Source: an uncultured virus (IMG/VR IMGVR_UViG_3300014203_000013)
Taxonomy: Duplodnaviria; Heunggongvirae; Uroviricota; Caudoviricetes
Strand: one strand, 5' to 3'
DNA length: 62,040 nucleotides
Virus record (IMG/VR): IMGVR_UViG_3300014203_000013
Shown: one piece after another, positions 1-15,803 of the stretch
Layout: every line of letters starts with the position of its first letter
How positions within the stretch are numbered: the first letter of the stretch is position 1
Program-made: the position numbers and the translations under genes
Notes under the pieces: generated by a model
Databases searched by the model: none
The model's input: the letters and a program-made list of their open reading frames with translations, nothing else
What the model was told of the DNA's origin: nothing

Positions 1-2038
1 ACCAAAGATCATTCCCTTCAAGACGGAATTCAACACGGGATTCATTAATGCTTGGCTTGTGGACAATCATCCCCTTGTCTATCGCGAATTTAACATACTT
101 GTCAAAGATCGTGGTGCCGAATTTTTCCTTCTTCGGGTCACTGTTCTGAAGCAAAGCTGTCATGTATTCATAGAAGTAATGATACCTTAGCCATAGTTCT
201 GTAGTCGTAATTGCTGAATAACAAATTGCGTGACTATTAGAAGTTACATATCCGTTAGCGAAAAAAAGGTGTTCTGGAGAGTCTACTGTAATATCCATTG
301 TTTCCATTTCTCCCATACCGAGAAGAGAAATAACTTCTAGACTTTCTCCGTTTTCCATGCAGATTCTGTAACCATTTCTAAAGATAGCATCCAAACTACA
401 TACATTATAACCGTAATCAGTGTGGCACATAAACTTGTGGTTTAGCGTACAAACGATTTTATGCAATCCATCTTTCCCTTCCAACGAAAGCTTAACGCAA
501 GACTTCCTTCCTGTCTTGATAATGTCCGTTACCTTGACGTATTTTTCTCCTGAAGTTTTATCAAAACCTAAAATCATGTCTCCGATTTTAAGAGAAGACA
601 TCTTGACAACAGATCCATTTTCTTTTTTTACCTTTGTATCGGGAGATAAACATTTATTGAAGCTGTAAGACGCTGTAGATTCTATCTGATTCCAGATTTC
701 GTTTACTTGCGCTTCTGTCATTAAACCTTTTTTGACGCATTTTTCAATTGAACCGTTGATGAATTTTGGTTTCATTTCATCCATGATGTCTTTTTTCTTC
801 TTGCTAGCTCCCTTACGGAGACGATTTCCTTCAAGCGGTGACATTCCTGCCATTTCTACGGCAAGTTTCATTAAACCTTCCTGATAGGCTAGGATTCCGT
901 ATGTATCTCCCAGAACATTTTCCAGAATCTGGTTTTTCTCATATTTCTTGCCGTTCTTACGTTCCGCATATTCCACATCAAGACCCACATCTTTAGGTCC
1001 AGGGCGAATAAGAGAAGTGATTGCTGCGATATCTCCTAGACAGTCGCAACCGACCTTATCCGCAATTTTCTTGGTATACGGGTTTTCAAATTGGAATATT
1101 CCCAGAAGTTCCCCGCGTGTTCCCATTTTGATAGATTCGTGATCGTCCACAGGAATATCTTTCCTATGCAGTTCAATACCCCTATTTTCCTTAACTAGCT
1201 TGATACATTTATCGATAATAGGCAAATTATTCAACGATAAAATGTCAAATTTTATATATCCCTGGCTGGACAATTCCTGCTTTTCTCCACTTTCTGACCA
1301 AGAACTCACGACACGGCCTTCTTTATCTTTGTACACCGGTATCTTTTCAGTAAGGTTAAGATTGGAAATAATGACGCCACCGGCATGTGTCCCGAAATTC
1401 TTAGCCTGATTCCTTAAAATTTCCGCGTGTTCCTTCACTTCAGGATATTTTTCAAAGTAATTGGCAAGTTCCGGCTGTGCCTTGCAGATTTCCTCAAACC
1501 CTGCTTTGTCAAGCTTCGTGTCTTCGTCACCGTCTTCTTCTCCTCCGATTTCCGCATCAAGATTCTTCGTGACTTCCATCGCTTCTTTAACGTCCAATCC
1601 AAGCGCCCTAGCAACGTCCAGGATAACGTTCTTCGTCTTGTAGGTGCCTACGGTGCCGACACTACAGACGCGTTCCTGCCCGAATTTTTCCACAAGGAAA
1701 GCTTTGACTTCATTCCTGACATCCGGCATCAAGTCCATGTCTATATCAGGAGGATCTGCTTTCCCGAATTTTTTAAAGTCAGGAGTTATCCCGTTTTTTA
1801 CCGGGTCTAAACCGCTGATTCCTAAAAGCCAGAGGATGACACTTCCAGACTTGTTATTTTCCGAAGGTTGGTTACCCCTCCTTTCGAGGATTTCTTTGGC
1901 TTTATCTGTCTGAACAAACAAAACCCACTTTTTCAAGTCTCTAATTTCATCATTATATCTTTGCCTATAGTCATTTCCTAATTTTGAAACCAACGGATCG
2001 CAAACCTGTTTAATAATATCGATACTCGGGTATTTCAT
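1..2038 (-). CDS. dnaE: DNA polymerase III alpha-like catalytic chain lacking the PHP domain; contains a mini-intein; runs off the window start
   Basis: Not in the ORF track; translated by hand from ATG at 2038 (RBS AAGGA). Shows MKYPSID...PPDIDMD...GTHAGGVII...KFDILSL...GIFQFE...LIRPGP...TYGILAYQE...YSFNK[intein]SHAICYS, which are the DnaE palm/thumb/fingers motifs. Open to base 2. Confidence 0.95.
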   Translation of the reverse strand, partial: MKYPSIDIIKQVCDPLVSKLGNDYRQRYNDEIRDLKKWVLFVQTDKAKEILERRGNQPSENNKSGSVILWLLGISGLDPVKNGITPDFKKFGKADPPDIDMDLMPDVRNEVKAFLVEKFGQERVCSVGTVGTYKTKNVILDVARALGLDVKEAMEVTKNLDAEIGGEEDGDEDTKLDKAGFEEICKAQPELANYFEKYPEVKEHAEILRNQAKNFGTHAGGVIISNLNLTEKIPVYKDKEGRVVSSWSESGEKQELSSQGYIKFDILSLNNLPIIDKCIKLVKENRGIELHRKDIPVDDHESIKMGTRGELLGIFQFENPYTKKIADKVGCDCLGDIAAITSLIRPGPKDVGLDVEYAERKNGKKYEKNQILENVLGDTYGILAYQEGLMKLAVEMAGMSPLEGNRLRKGASKKKKDIMDEMKPKFINGSIEKCVKKGLMTEAQVNEIWNQIESTASYSFNKCLSPDTKVKKENGSVVKMSSLKIGDMILGFDKTSGEKYVKVTDIIKTGRKSCVKLSLEGKDGLHKIVCTLNHKFMCHTDYGYNVCSLDAIFRNGYRICMENGESLEVISLLGMGEMETMDITVDSPEHLFFANGYVTSNSHAICYSAITTTELWLRYHYFYEYMTALLQNSDPKKEKFGTTIFDKYVKFAIDKGMIVHKPSINESRVEFRLEGNDLW
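236..652 (-). mobile_element. Cis mini-intein (139 aa, no endonuclease) in dnaE at FNK|SHA
   Basis: CLSPDTKV...IVCTLNHKF (block B TxxH)...MDITVDSPEHLFFANGYVTSN, then Ser+1. Removal restores the conserved FNKSHA motif. Confidence 0.93.
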
Positions 2039-2057
2039 AATATTTCCTTGTCAGTCT

Positions 2058-2105
2058 AAAATAGAAAGACTGATAGATTTTTACACAGTTCAGTCTTTCT
2101 ATTTT
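2058..2105 (-). repeat. Perfect 16-bp inverted repeat (16-nt loop) just upstream of the dnaE catalytic gene; possible terminator or regulatory hairpin
   Basis: AAAATAGAAAGACTGA (2058-2073) and TCAGTCTTTCTATTTT (2090-2105). Confidence 0.7.
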
Positions 2106-2117
2106 TAAATACCAGTA

Positions 2118-2324
2118 TTATTCTTCCATTTTGGAAATTTTGTCTACAATAGGTCCGAGACAATTAATTGCATATAGCTGACATTCGTCATCTTGTTCCA
2201 TTTTTTCCCAGCTAAAAGCATCATGTTCCTTAATCCATTCTATTAAAATCTTAAACGAAAATTCTTTTGCTTCTTGGCTATCATCAATCTCTAGTTTATG
2301 TCCGTTTTTGGTTACTATTTCCAT
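2118..2324 (-). CDS. Hypothetical protein (68 aa, MEIVTKNG...)
   Basis: AGGAG RBS before ATG at 2324; part of track ORF 2118-2447. Confidence 0.6.
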   Translation of the reverse strand: MEIVTKNGHKLEIDDSQEAKEFSFKILIEWIKEHDAFSWEKMEQDDECQLYAINCLGPIVDKISKMEE

Positions 2325-2379
2325 GATTGTTTCTCCTGTTTCGTTTCTAACACCCACATTCTTCAGACAGAAAACGTTG

Positions 2380-2628
2380 TTAGAATTCTTTATATAAAAC
2401 TTCTCCGGTTTCATTATCATAACATCGTACATAATATTTAGATTCACCGCATTCTAATTTTTTCGGTTCTTCTTCTTCTCCGCGAGCGCGCAAAAAGAAT
2501 AATTCACGATTACAGTCGCAAGATGCGCTTCCAAACCGCCACCAAAATTCATGCCACGTCCAGTTTGGCCAAATGTCGGTAGCTATCACTCCATCCGAAT
2601 TTCTTTTTATATCAAGTTTTAAGACCAT
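2380..2628 (-). CDS. Hypothetical protein with a GxxSCDCNR motif
   Basis: ORF with AAGGA RBS and a Cys-rich motif. Confidence 0.6.
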   Translation of the reverse strand: MVLKLDIKRNSDGVIATDIWPNWTWHEFWWRFGSASCDCNRELFFLRARGEEEEPKKLECGESKYYVRCYDNETGEVLYKEF

Positions 2629-2649
2629 GTTTATTCCTTTCAGTTAGAA

Positions 2650-3288
2650 TTACATCTTGTTTATAAGGATGCTTTTTACTTGTTCCCAAACCATGTTTTC
2701 CTCTTGGCTTGCATCAATCAAAAATTTACGGTTTGGCTCCTTCTTCTGTAAGTCAAGAAAACCATCCCTGACTCTATGATGAAATTCCTTGCCAGCAAGT
2801 TCTATCCTGTCTGCCGATGTGTTTGTCTGAATCTGCCTTTTATTCATGCGATTAAGAGAATCTTCTAGTCCGATATCAAGAACGAATACGATGCTTGGGG
2901 AATAACCGCTTGTCGCGAATTTATTTAAATTCAGCAAGATATTTAAATCATATCCCCTTCCGTAACTCTGATACGCGAAAGTGCTATCTTCAAACCTGTC
3001 GCACAGGACAATCTTACCTGCTTTCAAAGCTGGTTCTATAACCTTTTCTACATGCTGAGCTCTGCTTGCAAGGAAAAGAAGCACTTCAGCGGCATTTGTA
3101 GGGCTTTCCCCGCAACTGTCATGTTTCAGCATGTCGCGGATATAATCCCCGAGTTTTGTCCCTCCTGGTTCTCTGGTGCAAAGGACTTCCTTACCATTTT
3201 CAATTAGCCATTCTGCTGTTCTCTTCAACATGGTGGATTTTCCGCCACCTTCCGGCCCTTCAAATGAAACAAACAAACCTTTTGACAT
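2650..3288 (-). CDS. tmk: Thymidylate kinase
   Basis: FEGPEGGGKST P-loop, TREPGGT, LFLASRAQH, CDRF..STFAYQ, DRIE. Confidence 0.96.
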   Translation of the reverse strand: MSKGLFVSFEGPEGGGKSTMLKRTAEWLIENGKEVLCTREPGGTKLGDYIRDMLKHDSCGESPTNAAEVLLFLASRAQHVEKVIEPALKAGKIVLCDRFEDSTFAYQSYGRGYDLNILLNLNKFATSGYSPSIVFVLDIGLEDSLNRMNKRQIQTNTSADRIELAGKEFHHRVRDGFLDLQKKEPNRKFLIDASQEENMVWEQVKSILINKM

Positions 3289-3291
3289 ATC

Positions 3292-3597
3292 CTAACTTCC
3301 TCTCGTGATTTTGTACCTTACGCCCATTTTATCTAAGAAAGTACGGGTAAGAACTTCTGCCATATTTCTCGTCTTTCCACGGACAACGGTTGTAATCGTC
3401 CCTTCATCCGTTTCCAGAACGATTCGACTTCCCCAGATTCTTGTTTCGTCTTTCCCGTCTTCACAAATTCCGTCTAAGACTTCTATCCTGCAATCAACCT
3501 TGTCTGTCAAAAGATAACTTACTTTACGGTTTCTGTTTTCTCTTCGAGTCTTATCATCAAGTTTCCTTTGTCTAATTTTCGAATCTACTTGAAACAT
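3292..3597 (-). CDS. Hypothetical protein
   Basis: ORF packed in the operon; start uncertain (3597 or 3645). Confidence 0.5.
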   Translation of the reverse strand: MFQVDSKIRQRKLDDKTRRENRNRKVSYLLTDKVDCRIEVLDGICEDGKDETRIWGSRIVLETDEGTITTVVRGKTRNMAEVLTRTFLDKMGVRYKITRGS

Positions 3598-3607
3598 CCT
3601 GTCTCTA

Positions 3608-4159
3608 TCAATCTTCAAAGTGTTTGGTATCCTTCCTTGATTCAAGTTCTTTTATACGTGACTTCAATTCGTCTATCTTATTTGACTTATCATCAAGCTT
3701 TTCTTTCAGCCCGACAATCCTTAAACAACCGAGTCTAAGAAGTTTATTCCTTTCAACGTCGAAAAACTTGCGGGAATCTTTATTCTTAACCGGCAACCGT
3801 TTCCTGACACAGCGATATCTTTGTCCCCCTCTTCTGGTTTTTAATTTCGTTACCGAAAGAATACCGGCATAAGATGGTATATTAGGATCATCAGCTAATT
3901 CTTCCGGGACTGCGAACCAGACATCACGGATTATTTCTTCTTTATGCCCGTGTTTTTTCTTAAGGTCTGCCTTTATATCAGCAGCGGTAACCTTTATTTC
4001 GACTTCGGTTCCACAGTTATACGGAGAAAGGACAATCAGATCGGCTTCGTGATAAGCGAAAAGTCCAAAACTGACATTCGGAACGATTATGTTCTGTCTA
4101 GGATTGAAATGTTTGATAACGGCTATTTCTATCTGTTGTGCTGTCCATTTGGGTCTCAT
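3608..4159 (-). CDS. MmcB-like PD-(D/E)xK nuclease
   Basis: EADLIVL...EVEIKVTAADIKADLKK...WFAVP pattern; start uncertain. Confidence 0.65.
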   Translation of the reverse strand: MRPKWTAQQIEIAVIKHFNPRQNIIVPNVSFGLFAYHEADLIVLSPYNCGTEVEIKVTAADIKADLKKKHGHKEEIIRDVWFAVPEELADDPNIPSYAGILSVTKLKTRRGGQRYRCVRKRLPVKNKDSRKFFDVERNKLLRLGCLRIVGLKEKLDDKSNKIDELKSRIKELESRKDTKHFED

Positions 4160-4172
4160 ATCCCGATATCCT

Positions 4173-4397
4173 TCATATAACAAAAACTTTCTTTTTTTCA
4201 CCCGATCCTGTTTTAGAAAAATATCTCCATGTCTTCCATTTTTCTGACCATTGGATGTCTTCTATTTTCCCTGGCATTTCAGAATACTGCCCGTATGTTC
4301 CGCTTTCATCATGATACCACCACAGAAGTTGATCTTGAGGCATTTTCTGAAGGTGTTTGATTAAATCAGCGATGGTTATCTGTTTTTGATTGGACAT
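4173..4397 (-). CDS. Hypothetical protein
   Basis: ORF with the N-terminal ITIADLIKHLQKMPQD pattern common in phage small proteins. Confidence 0.55.
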   Translation of the reverse strand: MSNQKQITIADLIKHLQKMPQDQLLWWYHDESGTYGQYSEMPGKIEDIQWSEKWKTWRYFSKTGSGEKKKVFVI

Positions 4398-4406
4398 TTT
4401 AAGGCC

Positions 4407-4703
4407 TCAGGGAATTATCGAAGTCGTCATTACCCTGTTGAATTTCATTTTGAAAATAGAATCACCACATTTACATGAAAAATAAGTTCCGTCCCAACTG
4501 AGTTCTTGTTTTTCAACGATGAAAAACTCATCATTGTCAGTCGCCATGAATTGAAGTTCTGTATCATCGCTAAAATGGTTGAGGAAAGTCCAGAATCGAT
4601 ATTCTTCTTCTTCACATACGAATTTGTCTGAAGTTACAAGGATTTGATCTGCCGATTTGACTATTTCTTTGAATCTTTCCCAACTTACTTTTTGAATGTC
4701 CAT
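4407..4703 (-). CDS. Hypothetical protein
   Basis: ORF with GGAG RBS, operon packing. Confidence 0.55.
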   Translation of the reverse strand: MDIQKVSWERFKEIVKSADQILVTSDKFVCEEEEYRFWTFLNHFSDDTELQFMATDNDEFFIVEKQELSWDGTYFSCKCGDSIFKMKFNRVMTTSIIP

Positions 4704-4930
4704 TTTGCTTCTCCTTTTTCAAGTCTGAATCTGTCGAAAAAATAATCCACATCGATATCAAGCTTTTCTGATACCAAACACATCATTTTCACAAAATCAA
4801 AACCCGTTTTACTTTCTATAGTTTTAAACCCGTTTTCTTTCAAGAAGTTTTCTTTGTCGATTCCAAGATAGACAAAGAGGTTATCTATCCTTCTTAAAGC
4901 AAATTCTTTAGCTGTCAGTTTGTATTTCAT
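4685..4930 (-). CDS. Hypothetical protein, possibly degenerate XRE-type HTH
   Basis: ATGA overlap with the upstream gene; C-terminal VSEKLDIDVDYFF resembles the end of XRE domains. Confidence 0.4.
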   Translation of the reverse strand: MKYKLTAKEFALRRIDNLFVYLGIDKENFLKENGFKTIESKTGFDFVKMMCLVSEKLDIDVDYFFDRFRLEKGEAKWTFKK

Positions 4931-5133
4931 ATAAGACTTTCGTTCATTCGGATTATTAAATCGATTTCTTGTAAGGCTGAATAAAAATCGCATTTTCCAT
5001 CACTGACAGAATTCAAAAGACTTTGTATTTTTTCTGAATACAGTATTCGGCATTTTGGACACAGTACCTTCCCTTTTTCAATGTATCTTTCTTTTTCACT
5101 AGGAATTTCCGCATTGCAATTACTACAAATCAT
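4927..5133 (-). CDS. Small zinc-ribbon protein
   Basis: CSNC...CPKC; ATGA overlaps. Confidence 0.55.
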   Translation of the reverse strand: MICSNCNAEIPSEKERYIEKGKVLCPKCRILYSEKIQSLLNSVSDGKCDFYSALQEIDLIIRMNESLI

Positions 5134-5462
5134 ATGTCTTTTTCATCCATACCGTATTTTAGAAGAAATTCTTCCATCTGTTGCATCGTGAAATCATTAT
5201 GAATTTCCAAAATTCGTGTATGTAACATGTCAGCCAACCAAGAGAATACGGAATAAAAACAATCTTCTTCTCTGTAATACATCCTTTGATCAAAAATGGT
5301 ATCTTCACGGCCTGGAATCTTTAATTTAGATCCGTTTGGGTATAGTGAAAATTCGACAAAGACCTTATCAGGACGCTTCCTTCCGACGAGAAGACGCGCT
5401 TCTGGTAGAAGTTTTTCAATATCTGCAAACAAATTTCCCTGTTTATAAATATCCACTTTCAT
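5130..5462 (-). CDS. Hypothetical protein
   Basis: ORF in operon. Confidence 0.55.
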   Translation of the reverse strand: MKVDIYKQGNLFADIEKLLPEARLLVGRKRPDKVFVEFSLYPNGSKLKIPGREDTIFDQRMYYREEDCFYSVFSWLADMLHTRILEIHNDFTMQQMEEFLLKYGMDEKDI

Positions 5463-5474
5463 ATCATCCCCATC

Positions 5475-6143
5475 TTATTTGATAAATGCCTGAAACGCCT
5501 GTGGCGTAATGACGTTAAAATCCACATTGCCGCGAAATACTTCAAGGTTTGTTTTCCCGGTATACGACATTGCTGTCGAAAGATAATGCTTGAAATTATC
5601 TGTCCATTGTCCGAGGGTATATTCTACGCGGTTCTTCTTAATGATCCCTTCACTTGTCTTTAGGACTTCATGCCCCATTTCGCGTTGGGCGCGTTTTGTA
5701 GACATGCCGTAATATTCCTTTTCAAGCTCCAAACCGTTTTTGAAAGCGGCTTTAATTTCTTCAGAATACTGATCAACAATACAGTTGGTTCCCCTGACTG
5801 TCGTCTTTCCCGCGCTCTGAAGTGCCTTGTTGAAAAGACTTCCGCACATTACCTTGTCGGCTCCCAATCCAATTGCCTTGATAATTTGATCAAAGTTACT
5901 AAAACCGCCATCGGCGATGATTTCTGTTTTTAAATTAGAACGCATCTTTTCTTGATAACAATTGTCGATTAGAGAAGCTAACGGGTAGTGAACGCTTGAA
6001 TTCGCTGATGTCGTACAGTTGTGAACTACATATCCGTTTGCCACATAAGAATGGTCTTTAAAAACCGTCATGTCATTAACCATAACTTCTCGAATTTGTT
6101 CTTCGACTATTGAAGAAATTTCAACTAGCTTAAACTTTTCCAT
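5475..6143 (-). CDS. Split-intein C-fragment (42 aa) fused to the C-terminal half of a GMP reductase/IMPDH-family enzyme
   Basis: MEKFKLVEISSI...DMTVFKDHSYVANGYVVHN|CTT; extein has IIADGG, GADKVMCGSLF, YYGMS, SEG, AMSYTG motifs. Confidence 0.93.
   Translation of the reverse strand: MEKFKLVEISSIVEEQIREVMVNDMTVFKDHSYVANGYVVHNCTTSANSSVHYPLASLIDNCYQEKMRSNLKTEIIADGGFSNFDQIIKAIGLGADKVMCGSLFNKALQSAGKTTVRGTNCIVDQYSEEIKAAFKNGLELEKEYYGMSTKRAQREMGHEVLKTSEGIIKKNRVEYTLGQWTDNFKHYLSTAMSYTGKTNLEVFRGNVDFNVITPQAFQAFIK
6018..6143 (-). mobile_element. IntC of the GMPR/IMPDH split intein
   Basis: Blocks F/G ending VHN, with Cys at +1. Confidence 0.92.
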
Positions 6144-7129
6144 TTTTCTAATTCCTTAATAAAGGATATATCTTTCATCATCTTTAGACTAAAGCGAATC
6201 AAAACATATCCTCGGTCTTCTGCAATTTGATCTTTAGTTCTGTCGTTTTCTTGTTCTTCTTTTGAAGAATGAAAAAAACCTTCTCCGTCATATTCTATTA
6301 AGATTTTACCATAAATAAGGCCATCGTATAGTTTGTTTTCTAACCTAAATCCTTGTTTAACATTTGCGCCGCCAAGATAAAACCGCAAAATTTTGAAGAA
6401 AAAATCTTCTTCTTTCGACGCATATCCGCATTTCAAAAATGGTACGACATTTTCTTCCCCGAACAAAAACATAAGATTTTTCAGCATAGTTGTGTCTGTG
6501 TACTTGAATCCGAATTTCCTATTCACTTCTCTCATTGTAAATAAGTATGGATTGCTATGTATAAAGTCATAAACTTCACGATAAAATGATTTCTCTTTTT
6601 CAATTTTTTCTCTTTTGGCTTTTGTTCCCAAGATTGAATTGTTTTTTGCACCAATTCTTTTATATTCCTGTGTAGTGCAAAATCCAAAAGCTATCCACAT
6701 GTCCCTTAAAGTCCTTTTGTCATAATCATATTTTTCAGAAAGAGAAGACAAGTTCATTCTTGAATTTTTAAAATCATCGAACGAAGCTTTGAGAAGATTC
6801 TTGTCAACATCTTTATAATACAACAAATCACTTTTTCTTTGTGCCGCACTCATCTTTAATTTGTCAATTGTCTCTTGAGACGGGGGCATTCTATTTTTGT
6901 GATCCCCATAATATTTGTGCCAAATATTCCACCCTTTCTTTGTCGTAACAGGGGTACTACACCCACAATGACAGAGTGGCGTTTTACCATCTAATTCATA
7001 CAGGATAAAATAATCACCCCTTTTCATTCTGTGTGAAACTCTAAGATGTTTATAAAAATCTCTTAATACATATTGTTCTTTTTCTCCTTTGATTACTTTA
7101 TTGCAAACAAGACATTTAATCTCTTTCAT
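6125..7129 (-). CDS. Free-standing putative homing endonuclease (Vsr/DUF559-like C-terminal domain, N-terminal Zn-binding modules) between the split-intein halves
   Basis: C-terminal YDGLI..KILIEYDGEGFFH...ENDRTKDQIAEDRGYVLIRF; N-terminal CLVC..HLRVSH and CHCGC. Confidence 0.85.
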   Translation of the reverse strand: MKEIKCLVCNKVIKGEKEQYVLRDFYKHLRVSHRMKRGDYFILYELDGKTPLCHCGCSTPVTTKKGWNIWHKYYGDHKNRMPPSQETIDKLKMSAAQRKSDLLYYKDVDKNLLKASFDDFKNSRMNLSSLSEKYDYDKRTLRDMWIAFGFCTTQEYKRIGAKNNSILGTKAKREKIEKEKSFYREVYDFIHSNPYLFTMREVNRKFGFKYTDTTMLKNLMFLFGEENVVPFLKCGYASKEEDFFFKILRFYLGGANVKQGFRLENKLYDGLIYGKILIEYDGEGFFHSSKEEQENDRTKDQIAEDRGYVLIRFSLKMMKDISFIKELEKWKSLS

Positions 7130-7168
7130 TTTACTCCTTGCTTGGCGAAAAACATATACATCCAGCTC

Positions 7169-7987
7169 CTATGCCGTTTTTATCAAAAAATGTTTACTTT
7201 CGTCTAAGTCTTTCGCTTCCACCCATTTTGCATATTTTTCTATGTTCTCGTCAGTAACAAATTGTGCATCTTCTTTCTCTACTACCCAAAATTTATGTTC
7301 TTCGGTGCAGGTGATCTCTTTATTAATTGTAAGAATCTTCTTTTTGTTTTTAAATCTTGCTTTACAAACAACCTCATTTTGTCCAATATGTGTTTTAACC
7401 ATTTCTCCTGTTTTGATGTTTTCTATTTTTTCTGTTTTCCCATCATGGAGCGTGATTTTCGTTCCATCAACAAAACACGCATTTCCAGTGCCGATCCCTA
7501 AACGCACAGCATCGGCTCCTGCCTCCGCAAGATTGACGAAAGTCTCTGGTAACGCCACGTTTCCGACCATAATCCATAATCTGTCTCCAAACCTTTTTTT
7601 GGAATCTTTTATGACCTGAAGAAGTTTGTTCATATGACCGTTTGCGATATCAATAAGGGCATAGTGTCTGACAGTATTGTCCTCTTTTGACCATTCTTCT
7701 ACCAAACTCTTAAATTCGTCAAGACCATAGCTTTGAATAAGAAAAGATTCTGTCTTTTTCACCCACTTGTCCCTTCCGGTTCGCGGAAGACAGACATTGA
7801 TGGAATTATTTATAAACTGCTGGAAACTATTGACGTCGATAACACTAAACATCGGTGCGGTAATGAGCGGCAACATTCCGTCAGACCTTGAGTAAACATT
7901 GCACTGACTTCTGCTATCGATATAAGAAACAGAGGCTGGTAGCATAACGATATCAGAAAAAGAATATAAAGGTTTTGTTTTGATCAT
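7169..7987 (-). CDS. N-terminal half of a GMP reductase/IMPDH-family enzyme (no CBS domains) fused to a split-intein N-fragment
   Basis: SFSDIVMLP..SR, PLITAPM, IDIANGH, GNVA, GADAVRLGIGTGNA|CFVDGT...TCTEEHKF...stop. Confidence 0.93.
   Translation of the reverse strand: MIKTKPLYSFSDIVMLPASVSYIDSRSQCNVYSRSDGMLPLITAPMFSVIDVNSFQQFINNSINVCLPRTGRDKWVKKTESFLIQSYGLDEFKSLVEEWSKEDNTVRHYALIDIANGHMNKLLQVIKDSKKRFGDRLWIMVGNVALPETFVNLAEAGADAVRLGIGTGNACFVDGTKITLHDGKTEKIENIKTGEMVKTHIGQNEVVCKARFKNKKKILTINKEITCTEEHKFWVVEKEDAQFVTDENIEKYAKWVEAKDLDESKHFLIKTA
7172..7477 (-). mobile_element. IntN (102 aa) of the GMPR/IMPDH split intein
   Basis: Block A CFVDGTKI, block B TCTEEH, WVEAKDL, then a stop with no C-terminal HN. 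Confidence 0.92.
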
Positions 7988-8013
7988 TATTTCAATTCCT
8001 ACTTTTAAAGAAC

Positions 8014-8961
8014 TTAGGTATAGTTCTTATATGATTTCTTCTGGCGTGAACATTTCCGTCTGTTGATAGACTTCCGTTCCGATTTTTTGAAGAATTCTGA
8101 GATAACGTCAACCGTCCATCCATTACCGATGCAGTGTTTCCTCTTTGATTCTGGAATGCCGCTGGTATATCCATATGGCAGAGTCTGAAGCCTTTCGTTC
8201 TCTTCATTTGTCAGATAGCGAATACCGTCGCCAATCCTTACCTTGTTGTCCTGACTATTGCAGAATCCGCTTGCGCTTACGCATCCCGCTTTGTCTTCCG
8301 GCGTCAACACCCTGTACATACTTTGATAACGGTATTCTTTGATTTCAAGCTTACGCATCTGTTCTTTGCTTAACCAACGGTAGCTACGTTTAGGAAAGTC
8401 CGTAAGAATGTCTTTAAGGAAAATTCCCTTGTCTTTAATTTCAGAAGGAACGAGATTAGTCCAATAAAGTCTTTGTCGCTTCTGAGCGCTCAGAAGCGAC
8501 GAATTAACCCGACGAGGTTCTCCTGTCTGTAAGTAAAGACTGATAGTTTTAATCCACAGTGGTTTCATCACGACATTTTCAAGAAGAAAGTATGTCGGAT
8601 CGCATTCGTTCTTAAGCCTTGCATATTGGAAAAACAGACCGGATTTCCCATCGAACCCTTCCATCTTACCGTTCAGACTAAAACTTTGGCACGGACTTCC
8701 TCCGATAAGCAAATCGATTTTCCCGATATCAAAGTTTCCGTTTTCTGTATACAGGATGCCATCCATGTATCTTACCTTGTTTACATCTCCGATTCTGATA
8801 ATGTCCGGGAAATGTGTTTTAGAAACCATCATCGCCCAAGGGTCGATTTCACTAGAAAAATACTTCTTTACCTTGATCCCAGCACGTTCCAACGCAAGTC
8901 TTCCGCAACTGATTCCATCAAAAAGACTAAGTACTGTTATGCCGTCTTTATATTCCTTCAT
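8014..8961 (-). CDS. DNA (cytosine-5)-methyltransferase
   Basis: LSLFDGISCG, GGSPCQ, LLENV, QKRQRLYW, ERLQT, GNGW. Confidence 0.95.
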   Translation of the reverse strand: MKEYKDGITVLSLFDGISCGRLALERAGIKVKKYFSSEIDPWAMMVSKTHFPDIIRIGDVNKVRYMDGILYTENGNFDIGKIDLLIGGSPCQSFSLNGKMEGFDGKSGLFFQYARLKNECDPTYFLLENVVMKPLWIKTISLYLQTGEPRRVNSSLLSAQKRQRLYWTNLVPSEIKDKGIFLKDILTDFPKRSYRWLSKEQMRKLEIKEYRYQSMYRVLTPEDKAGCVSASGFCNSQDNKVRIGDGIRYLTNEENERLQTLPYGYTSGIPESKRKHCIGNGWTVDVISEFFKKSERKSINRRKCSRQKKSYKNYT

Positions 8962-9257
8962 TTCAGGGTTCCCTTCTGTTTTGAATATTCCATAAACTTT
9001 GTTACCCTCTTTTTCTTATCATTTTCCATTTCACGCTTCCAATATCCGCTTGGCTTCCTAATGATTCCATCTTCTTGTAAGAGTTCAACCACAGCGCAGA
9101 TATGATAGAATTCTTCTAAGATAAGTTCACCGTTGGTTCCCAATTTGGTATTAGGGTCTATGTCATCTAACCCGAAACGTAAGGCTTTGCCAACATTTTT
9201 CTGCACTTCGGCACACTCTTCAGAAAGGCATGCTAATAGATACTCGGTTTTATTCAT
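8958..9257 (-). CDS. MazG-like nucleotide pyrophosphohydrolase
   Basis: LSEECAEV...KALRFG...LILEEF all-alpha NTP-PPase pattern; second acidic motif is atypical (EFYH). Confidence 0.6.
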   Translation of the reverse strand: MNKTEYLLACLSEECAEVQKNVGKALRFGLDDIDPNTKLGTNGELILEEFYHICAVVELLQEDGIIRKPSGYWKREMENDKKKRVTKFMEYSKQKGTLK

Positions 9258-10320
9258 TGATCCCCTTCAAGATATGTGCAATGACATCTACTGTCCAGCC
9301 GTTTCCAAGCATTTTGTATCTCTGAGTGTCTGAAACACAATCTGTATAATTGTCCGGAACTGTTTGAAGCCTTTCGCATTCAAGTGGCGTGATATATCTG
9401 AAGAAGAATTCTCCGACTGGGACACGGTTTGGCAAAGTGAACGGAACGACAATATTATCTTTCGACACGGTGGAAATACAGTTGGTCTTTTTGTCATATC
9501 TGAATTCAATATATTGCGTTGTCATCCCTTCCGTTTTCATTTTCCCGTCTACGCGTTTACCGTTAAACAAACACCTTCCACGTATTGCGGCTACAGCCTG
9601 TAGGTCATTCGGTAAATCCACGATTCCAAAAAATCTCTGATTTGAATATTTCTTACAGTGGTATGCTTCAATCATCTGCATTTTATCAGAATCTTGATGG
9701 ACGGTCAAAACCCTATTGTGTTTTCTTGATGATTGTGCCAACCAAAACAAGGCTTTTTCAGTATAATAATAAGAGTGTGAATTTACTCCTTTTTCCTTAA
9801 CATCTCCCCAAGTGGTTCCTTTATCTTCTGGTTGCGTTACGTGTGGAATGTTTGTCCAATATAAACGCTTTCTATTTTGTGCGCTGACCAAACTGGAATT
9901 AATCATAATCGGATTTACGCCCAAAAGTCCAGAAATTACATCTTCATATTCTTTCTTCATACAAACATTTTCCAAAAGGAAATATTTTGGCTTACATTCT
10001 TTTAAAAGCCTAACAAATTCGAAGAATAGTTTACTTCGTGGGTCTTCGAAATTGAGTTGTTTCCCAGCGAAGCTAAAACCCTGACACGGGCTTCCTCCTA
10101 TAATGAGATCAATCTGTGGAAGGCTGTCCGATTTTACATCAAGAACATTTCCTACCTGAATAGTATTGGGAAAGTTTTTCATGCATACTTTAATCGCATT
10201 TTTATCAATTTCACTTGCGAAATAGTTCTTGCATTTTAATCCGGCTCTTTGCAATGCCAACTGCCCGCAACTCATTCCGTCAAATAAGCTTAGGACGTTA
10301 ATTCCTTCAAATGAATTCAT
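9250..10320 (-). CDS. DNA (cytosine-5)-methyltransferase
   Basis: LSLFDGMSCG, GGSPCQ, LLENV, QNRKRLYW, ECERLQT, GNGW. Confidence 0.95.
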   Translation of the reverse strand: MNSFEGINVLSLFDGMSCGQLALQRAGLKCKNYFASEIDKNAIKVCMKNFPNTIQVGNVLDVKSDSLPQIDLIIGGSPCQGFSFAGKQLNFEDPRSKLFFEFVRLLKECKPKYFLLENVCMKKEYEDVISGLLGVNPIMINSSLVSAQNRKRLYWTNIPHVTQPEDKGTTWGDVKEKGVNSHSYYYTEKALFWLAQSSRKHNRVLTVHQDSDKMQMIEAYHCKKYSNQRFFGIVDLPNDLQAVAAIRGRCLFNGKRVDGKMKTEGMTTQYIEFRYDKKTNCISTVSKDNIVVPFTLPNRVPVGEFFFRYITPLECERLQTVPDNYTDCVSDTQRYKMLGNGWTVDVIAHILKGINE

Positions 10321-11219
10321 TACTTGATTCCTTTTAGAATATGGGCGATCACGTCTACAGTCCAGCCATCTCCAAGGATTCCTGCGGCCTTATCTCTTGT
10401 AAGAATCTTTGTATAGCCTTCATCAACCGTCTGTAGGCGTTCTAATTCCGTCTGATTCAAAAACCGGATATTCTGATAAACACTGACATCTCCATGATAT
10501 TTATCCAAGTCTTTTGCTGTTACCGTCTTTAAATTGAAATTCGAAGTGAAATTTTCCATACATGCTAGGTAGTGTTGTTCGCTTTCAAAGACAATCGTTG
10601 TGAAGCCAGTTTTGAAGTAACGATAAAACATCTTCATCCGATTGCTCTGCGGACGGCTATCTGATTCCAAAAGACAACGTGCCTTGTCTCTGTCTGACCA
10701 TCCGCTTGTCAAAACTTGGTTTAGAAGAATTCCCTTGTCCTTCGGCTGTTCCACTTTTAGGTTTGTCCAATACAAGCGGTTTCGTAATTGCGCACTGATA
10801 AGAAGGGAATTAATAGCAATTGGTTCTACACCCATGATTTCGGTGATGACTGCTTTATCCGCTTCGGACATCAATCCAACGTTTTCAAGAAGGAAATATG
10901 TGGGATTCGTTTCTTTAAGAAGCCTGACATATTCGTAAAAAAGCTTCGACTTAATTCCTGCCAGACCCGTTCTGTTATACATCGCAATTGATAGATCCTG
11001 ACACGGACTTCCTCCAATAAGAAGGTCAATCTTACCAAGACTTTTACCGTCAAGCTTGGTGACATCTCCTACTTGTTTAGTATTCGGGAAGTTCGACATC
11101 GTGACCGAAATTCCATCAGTCTTGATTTCACTTGCGAAATAGTTGTCAGGAATGATCCCGATACGTTTAAGAGCTAGTTGACCACAACTCATACCGTCAA
11201 AAAGAGACAAAATATTCAT
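10320..11219 (-). CDS. DNA (cytosine-5)-methyltransferase
   Basis: LSLFDGMSCG, GGSPCQ, LLENV, QLRNRLYW, ERLQT, GDGW. Confidence 0.95.
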   Translation of the reverse strand: MNILSLFDGMSCGQLALKRIGIIPDNYFASEIKTDGISVTMSNFPNTKQVGDVTKLDGKSLGKIDLLIGGSPCQDLSIAMYNRTGLAGIKSKLFYEYVRLLKETNPTYFLLENVGLMSEADKAVITEIMGVEPIAINSLLISAQLRNRLYWTNLKVEQPKDKGILLNQVLTSGWSDRDKARCLLESDSRPQSNRMKMFYRYFKTGFTTIVFESEQHYLACMENFTSNFNLKTVTAKDLDKYHGDVSVYQNIRFLNQTELERLQTVDEGYTKILTRDKAAGILGDGWTVDVIAHILKGIK

Positions 11220-11246
11220 TCTTTTACGCCTTTCGAATTGACAACC

Positions 11247-11275
11247 ACTTTATCATTTTCGTCCGCTATTGTCAA
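11247..11275 (-). promoter_or_regulatory. Sigma70-type promoter for the methyltransferase operon
   Basis: Minus strand TTGACA-N17-TAAAGT with an extended -10 TGn; overlapped by the inverted repeat TTGACAA...TTGTCAA (11238-11275). Confidence 0.75.
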
Positions 11276-11278
11276 GTA

Positions 11279-11518
11279 TTAGGCTTCAAATCCATTGACC
11301 TTGATTTCACTTCTGCTAAAATCAAGAAAACGTTCGAACAGAAGATCGTACTTGATAGGGTCAATGTCTGTAATCCCCGTACAAAATGAAACTAATGACC
11401 CACCGGCTGAATTATGTACCGCTAATCCTTCTATATTGTATGTGTGCGTATTCCTAACACACAAATCATATACTTTCCCATTATATTCCATCTTTTTTAA
11501 CGATTTAATTTTAGACAT
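11279..11518 (-). CDS. dnaE: Split-intein C-fragment (36 aa) fused to a 43-aa DnaE palm segment
   Basis: MSKIKSL...[51 protein letters not shown]; continues the DnaE motif GRG-SAAGSLV. Confidence 0.93.
11411..11518 (-). mobile_element. IntC of the DnaE split intein
   Basis: Blocks F/G (VYDL..HTY..VHN), Ser+1. Confidence 0.92.
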
Positions 11519-13044
11519 CTATTCTCTCTTTCTTTTTCTTGGAGTAAATCCTGATTCTTCTACTAATAAGTTATAAGCCCCGAAAATTTTATACAAATAA
11601 ACAAACGACATTTTTGATTTCATTAAAAATTCTTCCCTTGTCGGAACGATTCCTGTCTCAGAAATTTGACGCTTAATTTCGTTAATGTACTTTAGTCTTT
11701 CTTCTTCAAGATTTTTCTGACCGAAACGTATTAAAGACATCCTTTTGGATCTTTCTGACATTTCCTTCCGTAACCTCTTTTTGGCACAAACTGGACAAGA
11801 ATTTCTTATGGGCGTGCATGTCCTGCTAGAAATTGTTTGTTTCCATTCATTCCCGCAGTCTGAACAAATCCACCATGCCTTTTCCGAAGACCAATATGGA
11901 TAAAAGTCTGGACCTTTATCATTCTTGTTGTAGTTCCACTGTAAGAGTAACTCAGGGCACTTAACATCAAGACGCATTTTGTGTTTTTTCTCTTCTTTTA
12001 TCCGCTGCTTTTCTTTCCTTTCGGATAATTTATTCGCGAGATAATTTTCGAAGCTTTTGGTGTTCTTAAACTTGCCGAAACCACAACATTCGATTTTATT
12101 AGAATCACAAAGTTCAGAAATCCAAAGTTCTACTTTTTTGTTATACTTTAGAATTCCCATTCTTTCCAAGTCAGCCTTGTAAAGAATAATATATCTTTTA
12201 TTGCCAAAATAAAAAGATTCTGCTGCCTCTTTTTTACGTTGAACTGTTTCAAATTCAGAAAGATTTCCTTTGATTTCCACGACATATTGAGTTCCACCAA
12301 TTTCCATTTCGAAATCTGGATAATAGTTTGAGGGTTTCCCTAATATCGTTTTGTAAGGAACATGATCCGTACACCTTTTGAAAGAACAAACTTCTATGTT
12401 ATTGTCACACCATAAAAGAAACATCAATTCCCAAGAACTAGCAAAAAAGATTCTTCCACACCTTGTAAATACCCACCCATAATAAAATCCACGTCCCATA
12501 AACTTCTGCTGACCTTCGGCATCCTTCCAGCGTTTTCTTAAGTCTTCAGAAACTTTTTCTCTTCTTTCTGGATGTTCTTTGTATCCACGACGTAAAGATT
12601 CTCCAATCCTTTTTCTTATTTCTGGGTCTTTTCGATGTACTTCTTTCAAAATTTCAGACATTTTACGTCTAGCTTCTGGTGTGCCTTGCACTTTTTTCTG
12701 AGCTTCTGAATTATGCCGCCGCCATTCTTCAGTAAATTGTTCCTTTCGAAGACATTTACCACAGAATTCTTCTTTTGCATGTTTTTTCTTGCTAAAAGTG
12801 AATTCCAAGTCGTAACAAAATGATTTCCACAACTATAACACGTACCAGACACATCCCACTTCAAATGTTTATTCAATTCATTTTCATGAATTAGCATTTC
12901 GTTTATAGGAATCGGTAGTTTCCCGAAATATTTGTATTCTACATTCTTGTTCGTTCTGATATCTATGCTTTTTATTGTACGTTCTTCAATGAAAGGACGA
13001 ATCCATTCTGGCACATCTTCTATTCTGTGATAAACGTTCCCCAT
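11519..13044 (-). CDS. Free-standing putative homing endonuclease between the dnaE split-intein halves; two overlapping ORFs joined by a -1 frameshift near 12781
   Basis: AGGAGG RBS before ATG 13044. Downstream frame has NUMOD3-like repeats, a TnsA-N-like PD-(D/E)xK core (SSWE..F...YYPDF...VEIKG), a DUF4379-like Zn ribbon (WWICSDC..W...CPVC) and an HNH-associated-repeat-like tail (PTREEF...IFGAYNLLVEESGF). Confidence 0.75.
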
Positions 13045-13093
13045 GTAAAGCCTCCTTTTAAATACTACCACTATCTAAGCATAGAGGCCAAAA

Positions 13094-14857
13094 TCAAAAA
13101 AGATCTACGATATCATCTCCTTCTAGTAGGTTTTGAGCTTCTACCCATTCTTCTTTTTGGTTCCTTGTTACAAGAATTCTATGGTTTAAAGTACAATTGA
13201 TTTTTCTTCCATCTTCAGTTTCAATTTCTATTAATTCTTCTTTTACATCATAAATAAATTTGTCAATTACTTCATTAAGTGTTCCGTCATGCGAATACAC
13301 AAATTCACCGATTTTAACATCAGATATAAATACTGGTATTTTGTTCTCTGTAATTACCCTGTTCCATGAAACAAAACACCCGCGCCCTATTCCGGTTCCC
13401 CATTCACCTCTCAATTCAATCGCCTTGTCTACGATCATTTCCGTGATAAGGAAATAATCCGCCCAACCGGCAAGGCAAATAACATCCAATTCATATTCTA
13501 GTCGTTCCGTATAGGTGTTCGAATCCTGACATTTATCAAACCCGTGTTCTCTAAATCCTTTCCATGCCATTTCTGAAAGGACTTCTTCGCTGTTTTCATA
13601 CAGCTTCGGAAGCTTGATTGATTTATCGACTTTATAGTCTTCGCAATTTACAGCTATCCATCGGGTGTTTTGACAAGCTTGTTGGAAAATATCAAATGTA
13701 AAAACATCATCTTCATAGGCATCTTGTTGATTTCCATCAGAATCGACATAGCCAGATTTGAAGAGTTCAAGAAGTTGATCATAGTTGCGATAATACAGAT
13801 TTTTTACCGTGAATTTCCAAGTATCGTCATCTTCCTTTTGAAGGTCTTGAATCGTCCTTCCCTGACGAATACACATCATAAGTTCGTGCGTCTCACTTTG
13901 TTCTGGGTAGAGATAATGGCTGTCAATACCTATAGATATTCTTGCCCCCATTTCCTGCGCGAACTTAATCAGTTTCCTGTTGAGTTCCTTCTGTTCCTTC
14001 ATTTCAATCAACTGGATTTCGATAAAGAATTCATCAAAACAAGACTTGTAAAATTCATATCTTGCCTTTGCTTCTTCAACCCTGTCCTGCATAAGCAATT
14101 CTGGAAGTTCACCAGCGAAACAGGCACTCGTCGCGAAAATTCCTTTCCCGAATTTCTTCAAAGCTTCGTCACATGTCCTTGGACTGTAGTAGAACCCGTT
14201 TAGCTGTGCGTCATTGTGTATCTTGATGATATTGTAATAGCCTTCGATGTTCTTAGCAAGTAGAATAAGATGGTTGGCACTGCGGTTAAGTTTTTTCTTT
14301 TCCGGGTCGTCGCCTCTGTAATTGTTATAATAGGCTTCCATTCCGAAAATCGGTTTGATCCCTGTTTCTTCACAGACCTGACTTTGTTTGATCCATCCCG
14401 CGATTCCGCCGTGATTTGTGACGGACATAAATTTTCGGTTTTGAGCCAATAGAAGACCAGCTAATCCCTTCCATTTTTTAGTATCTTTTTCATAACGACC
14501 GACAGTTTCGAGGGCATCTCTCCAACTATATTCGTCATGATGATGGTAGTTGAAAAATTTATCCTCGACATTTGTAAAAATGTCCTTTTCCAGTTCTTCT
14601 GTCATTCCTTCATAAAATCCGATTTTCCTTGTTAGTCTTTTGCCAATTTGAAGGACAAAAGAGGCTCCGCTAGCATATACTTCTGAAACTAAATCAACAC
14701 CTGATTTGGGATATGTAAAGCTGACTTCTCTTGTGTCAAGACACATTTCTTTCAGGTCTCTTGATGCGTCATAGTTTATGTCTGGTTTTACGATAAGAAT
14801 TTTTTTACAATCTGTTAATCTGTCTGTACACTCTTCTGTATAAACTCCATCATTCAT
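13094..14857 (-). CDS. dnaE: DNA polymerase III alpha N-terminal part (PHP domain and start of palm) fused to a split-intein N-fragment
   Basis: HHHDEYS, TNHG, IKPIFGMEAY, HLILLAKN, SACFAGE, DSHY, YTERLEYELDVI, DYFLI, GIGRG|CFVS... Confidence 0.95.
   Translation of the reverse strand: MNDGVYTEECTDRLTDCKKILIVKPDINYDASRDLKEMCLDTREVSFTYPKSGVDLVSEVYASGASFVLQIGKRLTRKIGFYEGMTEELEKDIFTNVEDKFFNYHHHDEYSWRDALETVGRYEKDTKKWKGLAGLLLAQNRKFMSVTNHGGIAGWIKQSQVCEETGIKPIFGMEAYYNNYRGDDPEKKKLNRSANHLILLAKNIEGYYNIIKIHNDAQLNGFYYSPRTCDEALKKFGKGIFATSACFAGELPELLMQDRVEEAKARYEFYKSCFDEFFIEIQLIEMKEQKELNRKLIKFAQEMGARISIGIDSHYLYPEQSETHELMMCIRQGRTIQDLQKEDDDTWKFTVKNLYYRNYDQLLELFKSGYVDSDGNQQDAYEDDVFTFDIFQQACQNTRWIAVNCEDYKVDKSIKLPKLYENSEEVLSEMAWKGFREHGFDKCQDSNTYTERLEYELDVICLAGWADYFLITEMIVDKAIELRGEWGTGIGRGCFVSWNRVITENKIPVFISDVKIGEFVYSHDGTLNEVIDKFIYDVKEELIEIETEDGRKINCTLNHRILVTRNQKEEWVEAQNLLEGDDIVDLF
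13097..13378 (-). mobile_element. IntN (94 aa) of the DnaE split intein
   Basis: CFVSWNRVIT...INCTLNHRIL...WVEAQNLLEGD, then stop. Confidence 0.92.
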
Positions 14858-14894
14858 GTTTAATTGTTACCTTTTAAAAATCATAGATATTCTG

Positions 14895-15803
14895 TTAGGA
14901 TTGTTTAAATCCGATCATGTTTGTTCCTGCAACGATGTCATATTTCATGTCATATGAAAATAAGTAGTTGACTTTTGAATCAGAAAATTTATTCATTAAA
15001 CCCCAAAAAGATGAAAGTTTTTCAGGGAACACGCCACAATAAAAATCAAGACTTTCAAAATCACCGAATATTTTCTTCTGTTTATCTGTGAGTCTTATCG
15101 TCGTAGGACAATAAGTAGCAAAATCAAGGACAGGACAATCAGGATAATTTCCTGAAACGTGTTCTATAAACATTTCCTTTGTAAGAAGAACAATCATTTT
15201 ATTCTTACAATCGCGAAACGGGAGGAGAGAAAGCGTCCTTCCGTAAAAAGGATTTGGAAGAGAAGATTCCATTATCTCATTATATGCAACGCCACCATGA
15301 ACAAGATATTGGACTAATTGACCGATGTCATCACCAGGAAGGAAATCAGCGATTTCTACAATCTCCTTATGTCTTTCAGAATCTAAAGGAGTTGACTTCT
15401 GTTCAAAATATGAATGTATCGGCGTCAGTTTTTCTTGGAAACAAACATATCCGAACAGTGGCATGAAGTCTGTTAGATTGGTCCAGAATACTGGTATTTT
15501 TAACCCCGTAAATCCAGACAAATCCGGCATAGATTCCCTGCAAAAAGCAAGTCCAGACAATATATCCACCTTCTGACGCCCACCACTGCTATCTACTAAA
15601 AAAGTATTGCCATACTCTACGCATTGTTTCCCGCTCTTCCCCGAAAACATTGCTGTTCCGAAACTCCCATACCTCATTTTTTCTTCATCTGTATAGGTTA
15701 GAAGGATATCAAACTTAAAAAGCTTCTTCTTCCCTATTTTTATGATTTTACCTTTATCTACAGTAATGCTATAACAAGAAGCCATATCATAATAAGTCTT
15801 CAT
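14895..15803 (-). CDS. Hypothetical protein
   Basis: About 300-aa ORF, ATGA overlap with the upstream gene. Confidence 0.7.
   Translation of the reverse strand: MKTYYDMASCYSITVDKGKIIKIGKKKLFKFDILLTYTDEEKMRYGSFGTAMFSGKSGKQCVEYGNTFLVDSSGGRQKVDILSGLAFCRESMPDLSGFTGLKIPVFWTNLTDFMPLFGYVCFQEKLTPIHSYFEQKSTPLDSERHKEIVEIADFLPGDDIGQLVQYLVHGGVAYNEIMESSLPNPFYGRTLSLLPFRDCKNKMIVLLTKEMFIEHVSGNYPDCPVLDFATYCPTTIRLTDKQKKIFGDFESLDFYCGVFPEKLSSFWGLMNKFSDSKVNYLFSYDMKYDIVAGTNMIGFKQS

Follow-up and report, generated by a model that had tools for sequence, protein, structure and literature searches.

A phage DnaE replicase encoded in three genes, with its palm residues divided between two chains and a duplicated palm segment at the break

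The stretch of DNA analysed here (the window) is a 62,040-nucleotide (nt) sequence of a Caudoviricetes virus (IMG/VR record IMGVR_UViG_3300014203_000013). It makes up the latter half of a 124-kb contig, the sequencing runs that hold it are landfill and groundwater metagenomes, and its source is an uncultured large phage. Its minus strand, on which all window features given below lie, carries a DnaE-type DNA polymerase in three genes, a layout that had been noticed in a first-pass annotation of the sequence and whose open reading frames (ORFs) were recovered here. Two of these genes flank a split intein and together specify the PHP chain (chain A); the third one specifies the catalytic chain (chain B). 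A 304-kb virus record, rated 100% complete by CheckV, is the closest relative; it shares the gene order, and its catalytic chain is 86% identical to that of the window. An ordinary single-chain bacterial DnaE is present in the same assembly, on another contig (C47).

The first gene of the PHP chain (13094-14857) encodes a 493-aa extein followed by a 94-aa N-intein. The extein part (13379-14857) comprises an N-terminal alpha/beta domain of about 100 aa, the PHP domain and the palm helical bundle, and terminates at G491-R492-G493, where the last two residues are the equivalents of R362 and G363 in E. coli numbering. The intein part (13094-13378, stop included) begins with Cys and gives Hint and Intein_splicing matches. 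The other gene (11279-11518) encodes a 36-aa C-intein ending in His-Asn (11411-11518) and a 43-aa extein. The functional part of the latter (11312-11410) contains Ser+1 (S364 equivalent), the GSL helix, FERF (R390) and the R396 equivalent, so named because the last arginine of a relative, P0123, aligns to E. coli residue 396. It is followed by a 10-residue C-terminal tail and the stop (11279-11311), with an invariant Phe 8 residues past the Arg; the tail is predicted to dock on chain B. Once spliced in silico, the PHP chain is 536 aa long (493 + 43) and, as first described, ends before the catalytic PDxDxD, 10 residues past the R396 equivalent. All nine PHP metal ligands are present (H105, H107, D114, H149, E174, H196, C246, D312 and H314, aligned to 5LEW and 2HPI via P0123), which matches the definition of the DnaE1-type PHP exonuclease by nine ligands, i.e. 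5 His, 3 Asp/Glu and 1 Cys (PMC5636811). The intact site suggests that the chain could proofread. As to the N-terminal alpha/beta domain (14560-14857), it has no Pfam match, is confidently folded in the model of a relative and is missing from some close relatives (P0129, P0131).

Between the intein halves lies a free-standing gene for a putative homing endonuclease (11519-13044). The first break thus has every feature of a fractured gene: both intein halves, Cys1, His-Asn/Ser+1 and a nuclease gene in between. In comparison with locus L001, the last intein codons show 0 base differences and the 240-nt C-intein gene shows 5, against 18 to 47 per 150 in the extein. Because the intein is nearly identical in sequence to that of L001 while the extein has diverged, and because most relatives have no intein there, we concluded that the first break is a recent, ordinary fractured-gene event, separate from the second break. 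The insertion point lies between the G363 and S364 equivalents, i.e. inside the GS motif, so that trans-splicing is probably needed for an active enzyme in the window phage; the first-pass annotation had made this dependence conditional. Compared with the intact 517-aa ORF of L001, the nuclease gene lacks one A in a run of A near 12790, and contigs from two other runs show no indel near that position. The site reads as an A-AAA-AAC heptamer, which may mean either decay or a leaky -1 frameshift.

The catalytic gene is 9,240 nt away. As in the early description, it starts at ATG 2038 and has no intein at its start; a Shine-Dalgarno-like AAGGA precedes the ATG. Its first 95 codons (1754-2038) specify a degenerate copy of the palm helical bundle, devoid of RGS and FERF/R and predicted to be a docking module. 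The core comes next (653-1753), with D98 and D100 of PPDIDMD (aa 96-102), the thumb, D265 of KFDIL (aa 263-267) and fingers; it is followed by a 139-aa cis mini-intein (aa 463-601, Cys...Asn; 236-652), not mentioned in the first-pass annotation and absent from L001, and by the remaining fingers (1-235). The gene then leaves the window and extends in the parent contig to G000:C1:61126 (HhH and OB domains; full length 970 aa), beyond which is an SbcC-like gene. According to Pfam and fold matches, the two chains together hold PHP, Pol-beta-like palm, thumb, fingers, HhH and OB domains. The three catalytic aspartates, the GS motif, R390 and R396 are all there, divided between the chains: instead of a palm made of one polypeptide, as in DnaE, there is a stop past the R396 equivalent and a new start 9,240 nt further on.

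Sequence comparison indicates that, as had been suspected, the opening 95 residues of the catalytic chain are a homologue of the segment with which the PHP chain ends. The local alignment score between copy and palm segment was 61, the maximum in 5,000 shuffles being 50, and profile-profile comparison (hhalign) gave a probability of 90-93% (E 1.5e-6 and 2.2e-7). A profile made from 11 copy N-termini matched 76 proteins in 1.84 billion: 34 further catalytic chains of the same type, 24 proteins with a canonical RGS...RF segment and 18 fragments or unclear cases. The ratio of nonsynonymous to synonymous substitution rates relative to L001 was 0.125 for the copy and 0.053 for the core, which denotes purifying selection on the copy. 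Two short proteins, P0289 and P0306, consist of a degenerate copy and then an apparent worn N-intein fragment.

The same division exists in related phages. The best 120 matches of each search were sorted into 22 split catalytic chains (those starting with the copy), 39 split PHP chains, 91 fused forms and 7 + 26 intein halves, with 55 left unclassified. RGS and FxRF partly defined the split PHP class, and absence of FxRF partly defined the split catalytic class; the Arg, the Phe, the absence of PDxDxD and the absence of RGS played no part in the picking. With that in mind, RGS, FxRF, the following Arg and the Phe 8 residues later were found in all 39 split PHP chains, none of which has PDxDxD, and the distance from RGS to the end was 46 residues in 37 of them. 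Conversely, the 22 split catalytic chains all lack RGS and RF, and all have DxD and KxD. Such a partition is what a duplication followed by complementary loss, as initially proposed, should leave. In E. coli Pol III, R362, G363 and S364 (palm strand 1) and R390 are less than 4 Å from dGTP, D401 and D403 (strand 2) are metal binders, and R362A abolishes activity (bioRxiv 10.64898/2026.06.29.735100). In the complete 304-kb relative, a search for PolA, PolB, an epsilon-type exonuclease, a second DnaE or any other DnaE piece found none, and no beta clamp was found either. Since the motifs are missing from 22 of 22 catalytic chains and present in 39 of 39 PHP chains, and since the relative has no other polymerase, sequence evidence points to the PHP chain as the only source of the loop that binds the incoming deoxynucleoside triphosphate (dNTP), a question that the first-pass annotation had left open and to which the structure model below gives the same answer. 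No cultured or annotated phage with the two-chain layout was among the matches listed by tblastn in a phage collection, where the DnaE of the top match (LR756511.1) is fused.

Structure models were made for the single chains and for a complex. In chain B alone, the copy folds as four helices with a predicted local distance difference test (pLDDT) value of about 90, and the active-site strands (95-107 and 249-272) are below 50; in chain A alone, the tail is below 50. Alignment of the single-chain model of chain B to solved DnaE structures starts mostly at residue 94-99, but the linker of the model is of low confidence, and this alignment is no guide to the position of the copy. The complex was modelled with the intein-free relatives P0134 (residues 108-545) and P0019 (1-475), ATP and Mg being included. 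It scored 0.87, the best of three controls 0.00; the mark applied to this score is reached by 116 of 157 solved complexes and by 2 of 215 mismatched pairs. The runs share at least 93% of their contacts and the partner pLDDT is at least 88. Residue 496 of chain A, in the strand before RGS, pairs with residues 107-108 of chain B, at the end of the DxD strand, which would put the chain A segment in its canonical place despite the presence of the copy. In the tail, C541 contacts D36 of the copy, 23 residues of which are in the interface; this tail-copy contact, unlike the rest of the complex, does not exist in solved structures. The layout of L091 fits a close apposition of tail and copy: one ORF (5896-8034) contains PHP, the functional palm bundle, the tail, a short linker, the degenerate copy and the DxD strand, the fingers being in a separate gene; the case is known from one record, which may be erroneous. 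The tail may itself be a worn copy of strand 2, as the spacing of its Phe resembles, by eye and not significantly, that of a PDIDxDF strand.

From the above, we consider it very likely that the enzyme is an obligate heterodimeric DnaE with a composite active site. Its sequence anatomy, the partition of the motifs, the selection on the copy and the co-occurrence of the chains are seen directly, the complex is predicted, and both polymerase and exonuclease activities would be expected from the sequence. Chain A, with its PHP exonuclease and palm bundle, would supply palm strand 1 and the R362-G363-S364, R390 and R396 equivalents for the incoming dNTP; chain B would supply the three catalytic aspartates, the thumb, the fingers and the OB fold. 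The degenerate 95-aa copy would stay outside the active site and serve for docking: it would hold the 10-residue tail of chain A and in this way replace the lost peptide bond. In the window phage, trans-splicing of the intein would first build chain A and thereby restore the GS motif. The modelled complex agrees with the non-covalent two-chain replicase proposed at first. The PHP part of that proposal fared less well. A detachable PHP subunit is not supported, because the PHP chain carries palm strand 1 and the dNTP-binding RGS, R390 and R396 equivalents, so that the polymerase active site would be incomplete without it; the site for a possible proofreading role is intact, with its nine ligands.

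Several points weigh against this interpretation. The modelled proteins are those of relatives and not those of the window, the halves of split genes tend to score well through their likeness to solved single-chain DnaE, and the output of the complex model contains neither ligand contacts nor coordinates. Moreover, the copy is of nearly canonical length as far as the DxD strand, has an almost invariant Asn at the position of Ser364 and could, in the absence of chain A, fill the canonical place. These last points bear on the best surviving alternative, which we regard as improbable: chain B would be a polymerase complete in itself, with its own diverged copy at the active site, and chain A a detachable, epsilon-like proofreading subunit. 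The confident folding of the copy into the same four helices, its near-canonical length, the purifying selection on it and the intact PHP site would all suit this scheme. It would leave unexplained why RGS and both arginines are gone from every one of the 22 copies and kept in all 39 PHP chains, where they make no sense in an exonuclease-only subunit, and the complex model sets the chain A strand into the sheet.

Covalent rejoining of the two genes into an ordinary single-chain DnaE, by RNA splicing, DNA excision, ribosomal bypass or some unknown protein ligation, appears still less probable. The position of the break is fixed, both of its flanks are 77-98% identical to those of fused sisters and the segment acts like a mobile insertion, all of which would suit such rejoining. 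However, no family of group I or group II intron RNA matched six junction loci or window positions 1-15000 at E values up to 1, and neither a Hint domain nor a conserved nucleophile was found in the tail or the copy at the second break. The genes lie as little as 2 nt or as much as 9.2 kb apart, with unrelated genes in between, and both tail and copy show conservation at the protein level. Contigs of four runs, from which rare variants drop out, contained no sequence that leads from the tail straight into the DxD strand; for joining at the RNA level, no holder of an RNA dataset is listed for the window stretch. That the pieces belong to a decaying or misassembled gene, the host polymerase being used instead, is hardly credible, since the frameshift in the nuclease gene inside the split intein is set against an identical layout in an independent 304-kb genome, contigs from other runs that match the window, purifying selection and dozens of relatives.

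The second break is intein-less and clade-wide, and the duplication is old and common to a large group of phages rather than local. On a tree of 114 catalytic cores (FastTree; 6 of 120 dropped for coverage), the patchy distribution of split and fused states requires 14 changes, of which well-supported branches force at least 11; on the tree of 149 PHP domains (FastTree), it requires 24. A single clade of split forms was rejected in approximately unbiased (AU) tests, with p values of 4e-5 (36 rows) and 3e-10 (54 rows), the fused rows having been picked after the first tree was seen. Just 3' of the break, identity between split forms and their fused sisters is 77-98%. Between the copy and the fused sister's own segment it is only 21-31%, which indicates that the copy was not re-created by fresh duplications. 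The fused junctions are canonical, with 3 residues between the Arg and PD in 73 of 91 cases and 4 in 13. When the copy tree was set against the core tree, five of six supported groupings, named after the trees had been seen, were rejected when tested on the other partition, with p values between 0.049 and 4e-43 (0.084 for the remaining one).

The pattern scans yielded many chance loci: only 21 of 44 had a hidden Markov model match, and of these L013 is a canonical DnaE and the other 20 collapse to 14 distinct records. DNA past the tail is visible in 15 distinct loci. The two genes are 2-18 nt apart in seven of them, and five (the window, L001, L018, L023 and L028) have other genes in the gap. 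A zinc-finger nuclease-like gene or its remnant sits right at the break in three, L004, L025 and, as a remnant, L015; the L004 and L025 nucleases, encoded directly past the tail, are 52% identical over 71 aa, and their family was called from zinc-finger and nuclease-like motifs read by eye, the Pfam matches being weak. The window has no nuclease gene at its intein-less break, and the junction nuclease of L004 shows no detectable relation to the nuclease inside the split intein.

These results incline us, somewhat, to the view that tail, stop, start and copy segment have been exchanged as a unit, at one fixed site, between phage lineages, by recombination that a homing nuclease with its gene in the gap probably started. 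The balance is even for a bolder form of it, in which they constitute a self-complementing homing cassette that cuts the replicase into two proteins, supplies its own docking domain and spreads into fused alleles; the cassette would open a slot for a nuclease gene and later for cargo genes. Beside introns and inteins, this would be a third way in which a selfish nuclease can lodge in the active-site loop of a replicase that the phage cannot do without. There is evidence on the other side. Split labels are clustered beyond shuffled ones on the catalytic-core tree (14 changes versus a mean of 20), the copy tree also has vertical signal relative to the core (Mantel rho 0.42), the window's own all-split subclade of seven members is congruent between copy and core, and 12 of the 15 loci have no nuclease gene directly at the break. 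Save for the clustering, these same facts favour an ancestral split that deletions, or recombination with fused alleles, reversed time and again, without selfish spread. We hold this explanation to be plausible, if rather less than probable: it has to face fused junctions that are canonical and not scarred, the rejection of five of the six groupings, and homologous nuclease genes directly past the tail in L004 and L025, plus the L015 remnant. Homing followed by decay and loss of the nuclease is an established model, and it predicts a pattern like that of the 15 loci, although repeated recombination in which homing has no part may also account for it.

Variants of the layout were also met. L011 (8807-15562) and L109, from a distant lineage, follow the same plan, a three-gene DnaE (424 + 288 + 502 aa in L011) with no intein at either break. 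L031 (4125-11626, minus strand) has DnaE in four genes, with the intein-less break and two intein breaks, each with its own nuclease gene. In L080, L097, L111, L118, P0186 and P0192, PHP chains stop soon after FERF...R with different tails; they may belong to the same split as distant members or have arisen independently.

In the window, the gap is occupied by a block of cargo genes (2118-11219). Directly past the PHP-chain stop, and heading the block, is a sigma-70-like promoter by consensus match, TTGACA-17-TAAAGT with an extended -10 (11247-11275). The block contains three C5 DNA methyltransferase genes, an intein-fractured gene of the IMPDH/GMP-reductase family with its own nuclease gene, a thymidylate kinase gene and small ORFs. 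The methyltransferase genes are in tandem (8014-11219), with a one-base insertion at position 8082 in three other runs; L001 has two, one of them apparently a recombinant of two window genes. The IMPDH/GMP-reductase-family gene (5475-7987) is broken by a split intein with a nuclease-like gene between the halves, and its L001 version is intact (347 aa). Just 5' of the ribosome-binding site of the catalytic gene is a 16-bp hairpin (2058-2105; z -4.7 and -4.5), and L001 has a hairpin of different sequence at the same place. Elsewhere in the window, a RecA gene with two inteins (HNH and LAGLIDADG; 18586-21594) and an SNF2 helicase gene with an intein (30886-33651) indicate that the phage is rich in mobile elements.

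Parts of this arrangement have precedents. Fractured genes, in which split intein halves flank a free-standing nuclease gene, count DnaE and IMPDH among their hosts (Dassa et al. 2009, PMC2677866); both 11279-14857 and the IMPDH-family gene at 5475-7987 are built in just this way, but of the two DnaE breaks it accounts for the first only, the second having no intein. Group 2.2 jumbo phages are predicted to have a minimal, intein-less split DNA polymerase III alpha made of an N-terminal nucleoside triphosphate-binding protein and a C-terminal Mg2+- and template-binding protein (Iyer et al. 2021, PMC7824862). Compared by description, the division is the same and the genes are distant as well; that version, however, is minimal and stands beside a family B replicase, whereas the one described here is full length (PHP, fingers, OB), with no PolB in the complete relative, and has a duplicated module with a predicted docking role, neither duplication nor mobility being mentioned in the accessible part of that text. 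In phage Aeh1, NrdA-a and NrdA-b result from fragmentation by the mobE homing endonuclease and new tails assemble the enzyme (Crona et al. 2011, PMC3045599); a fractured gp43 is known from Aeromonas phage 25 (cited in PMC2677866). In these cases, an essential enzyme is cut by a nuclease-linked insertion and left unspliced, with new C- and N-terminal tails as interaction domains. The enzyme described here may be of this kind: a nuclease-like gene or its remnant is at the intein-less break in 3 of 15 loci, the window not among them, and the complex model of relatives predicts an assembly role for the terminal extensions. The differences from Aeh1 NrdA, as far as the sources consulted describe it, are the enzyme itself, an N-terminal 'tail' that is a whole folded duplicate of the enzyme's own palm bundle, and recurrence across many lineages, interleaved with fused alleles. 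Relative to single-chain DnaE (M. tuberculosis DnaE1 5LEW, Taq 2HPI/3E0D and E. coli Pol III alpha; PMC5636811), the summed chains have the same domains and catalytic residues, but with a break between the R396 and D401 equivalents, an extra 95-aa bundle, the tail and the N-terminal domain of about 100 aa. No published description of the duplicated module or of its mobility was found in a literature that leaves out most subscription journals.

If the two-chain enzyme is what it seems to be, it is a replicative C-family polymerase in which the nucleotide-binding loop and the catalytic aspartates are on different proteins, and its natural split point and docking module could be of use in engineering and in dissecting the switch between polymerase and exonuclease. 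If the cassette is mobile, the Aeh1 NrdA case would no longer be an isolated event but one instance of an element that recurs widely, and this would account for the 'broken' dnaE genes that annotation pipelines see in many large phages.

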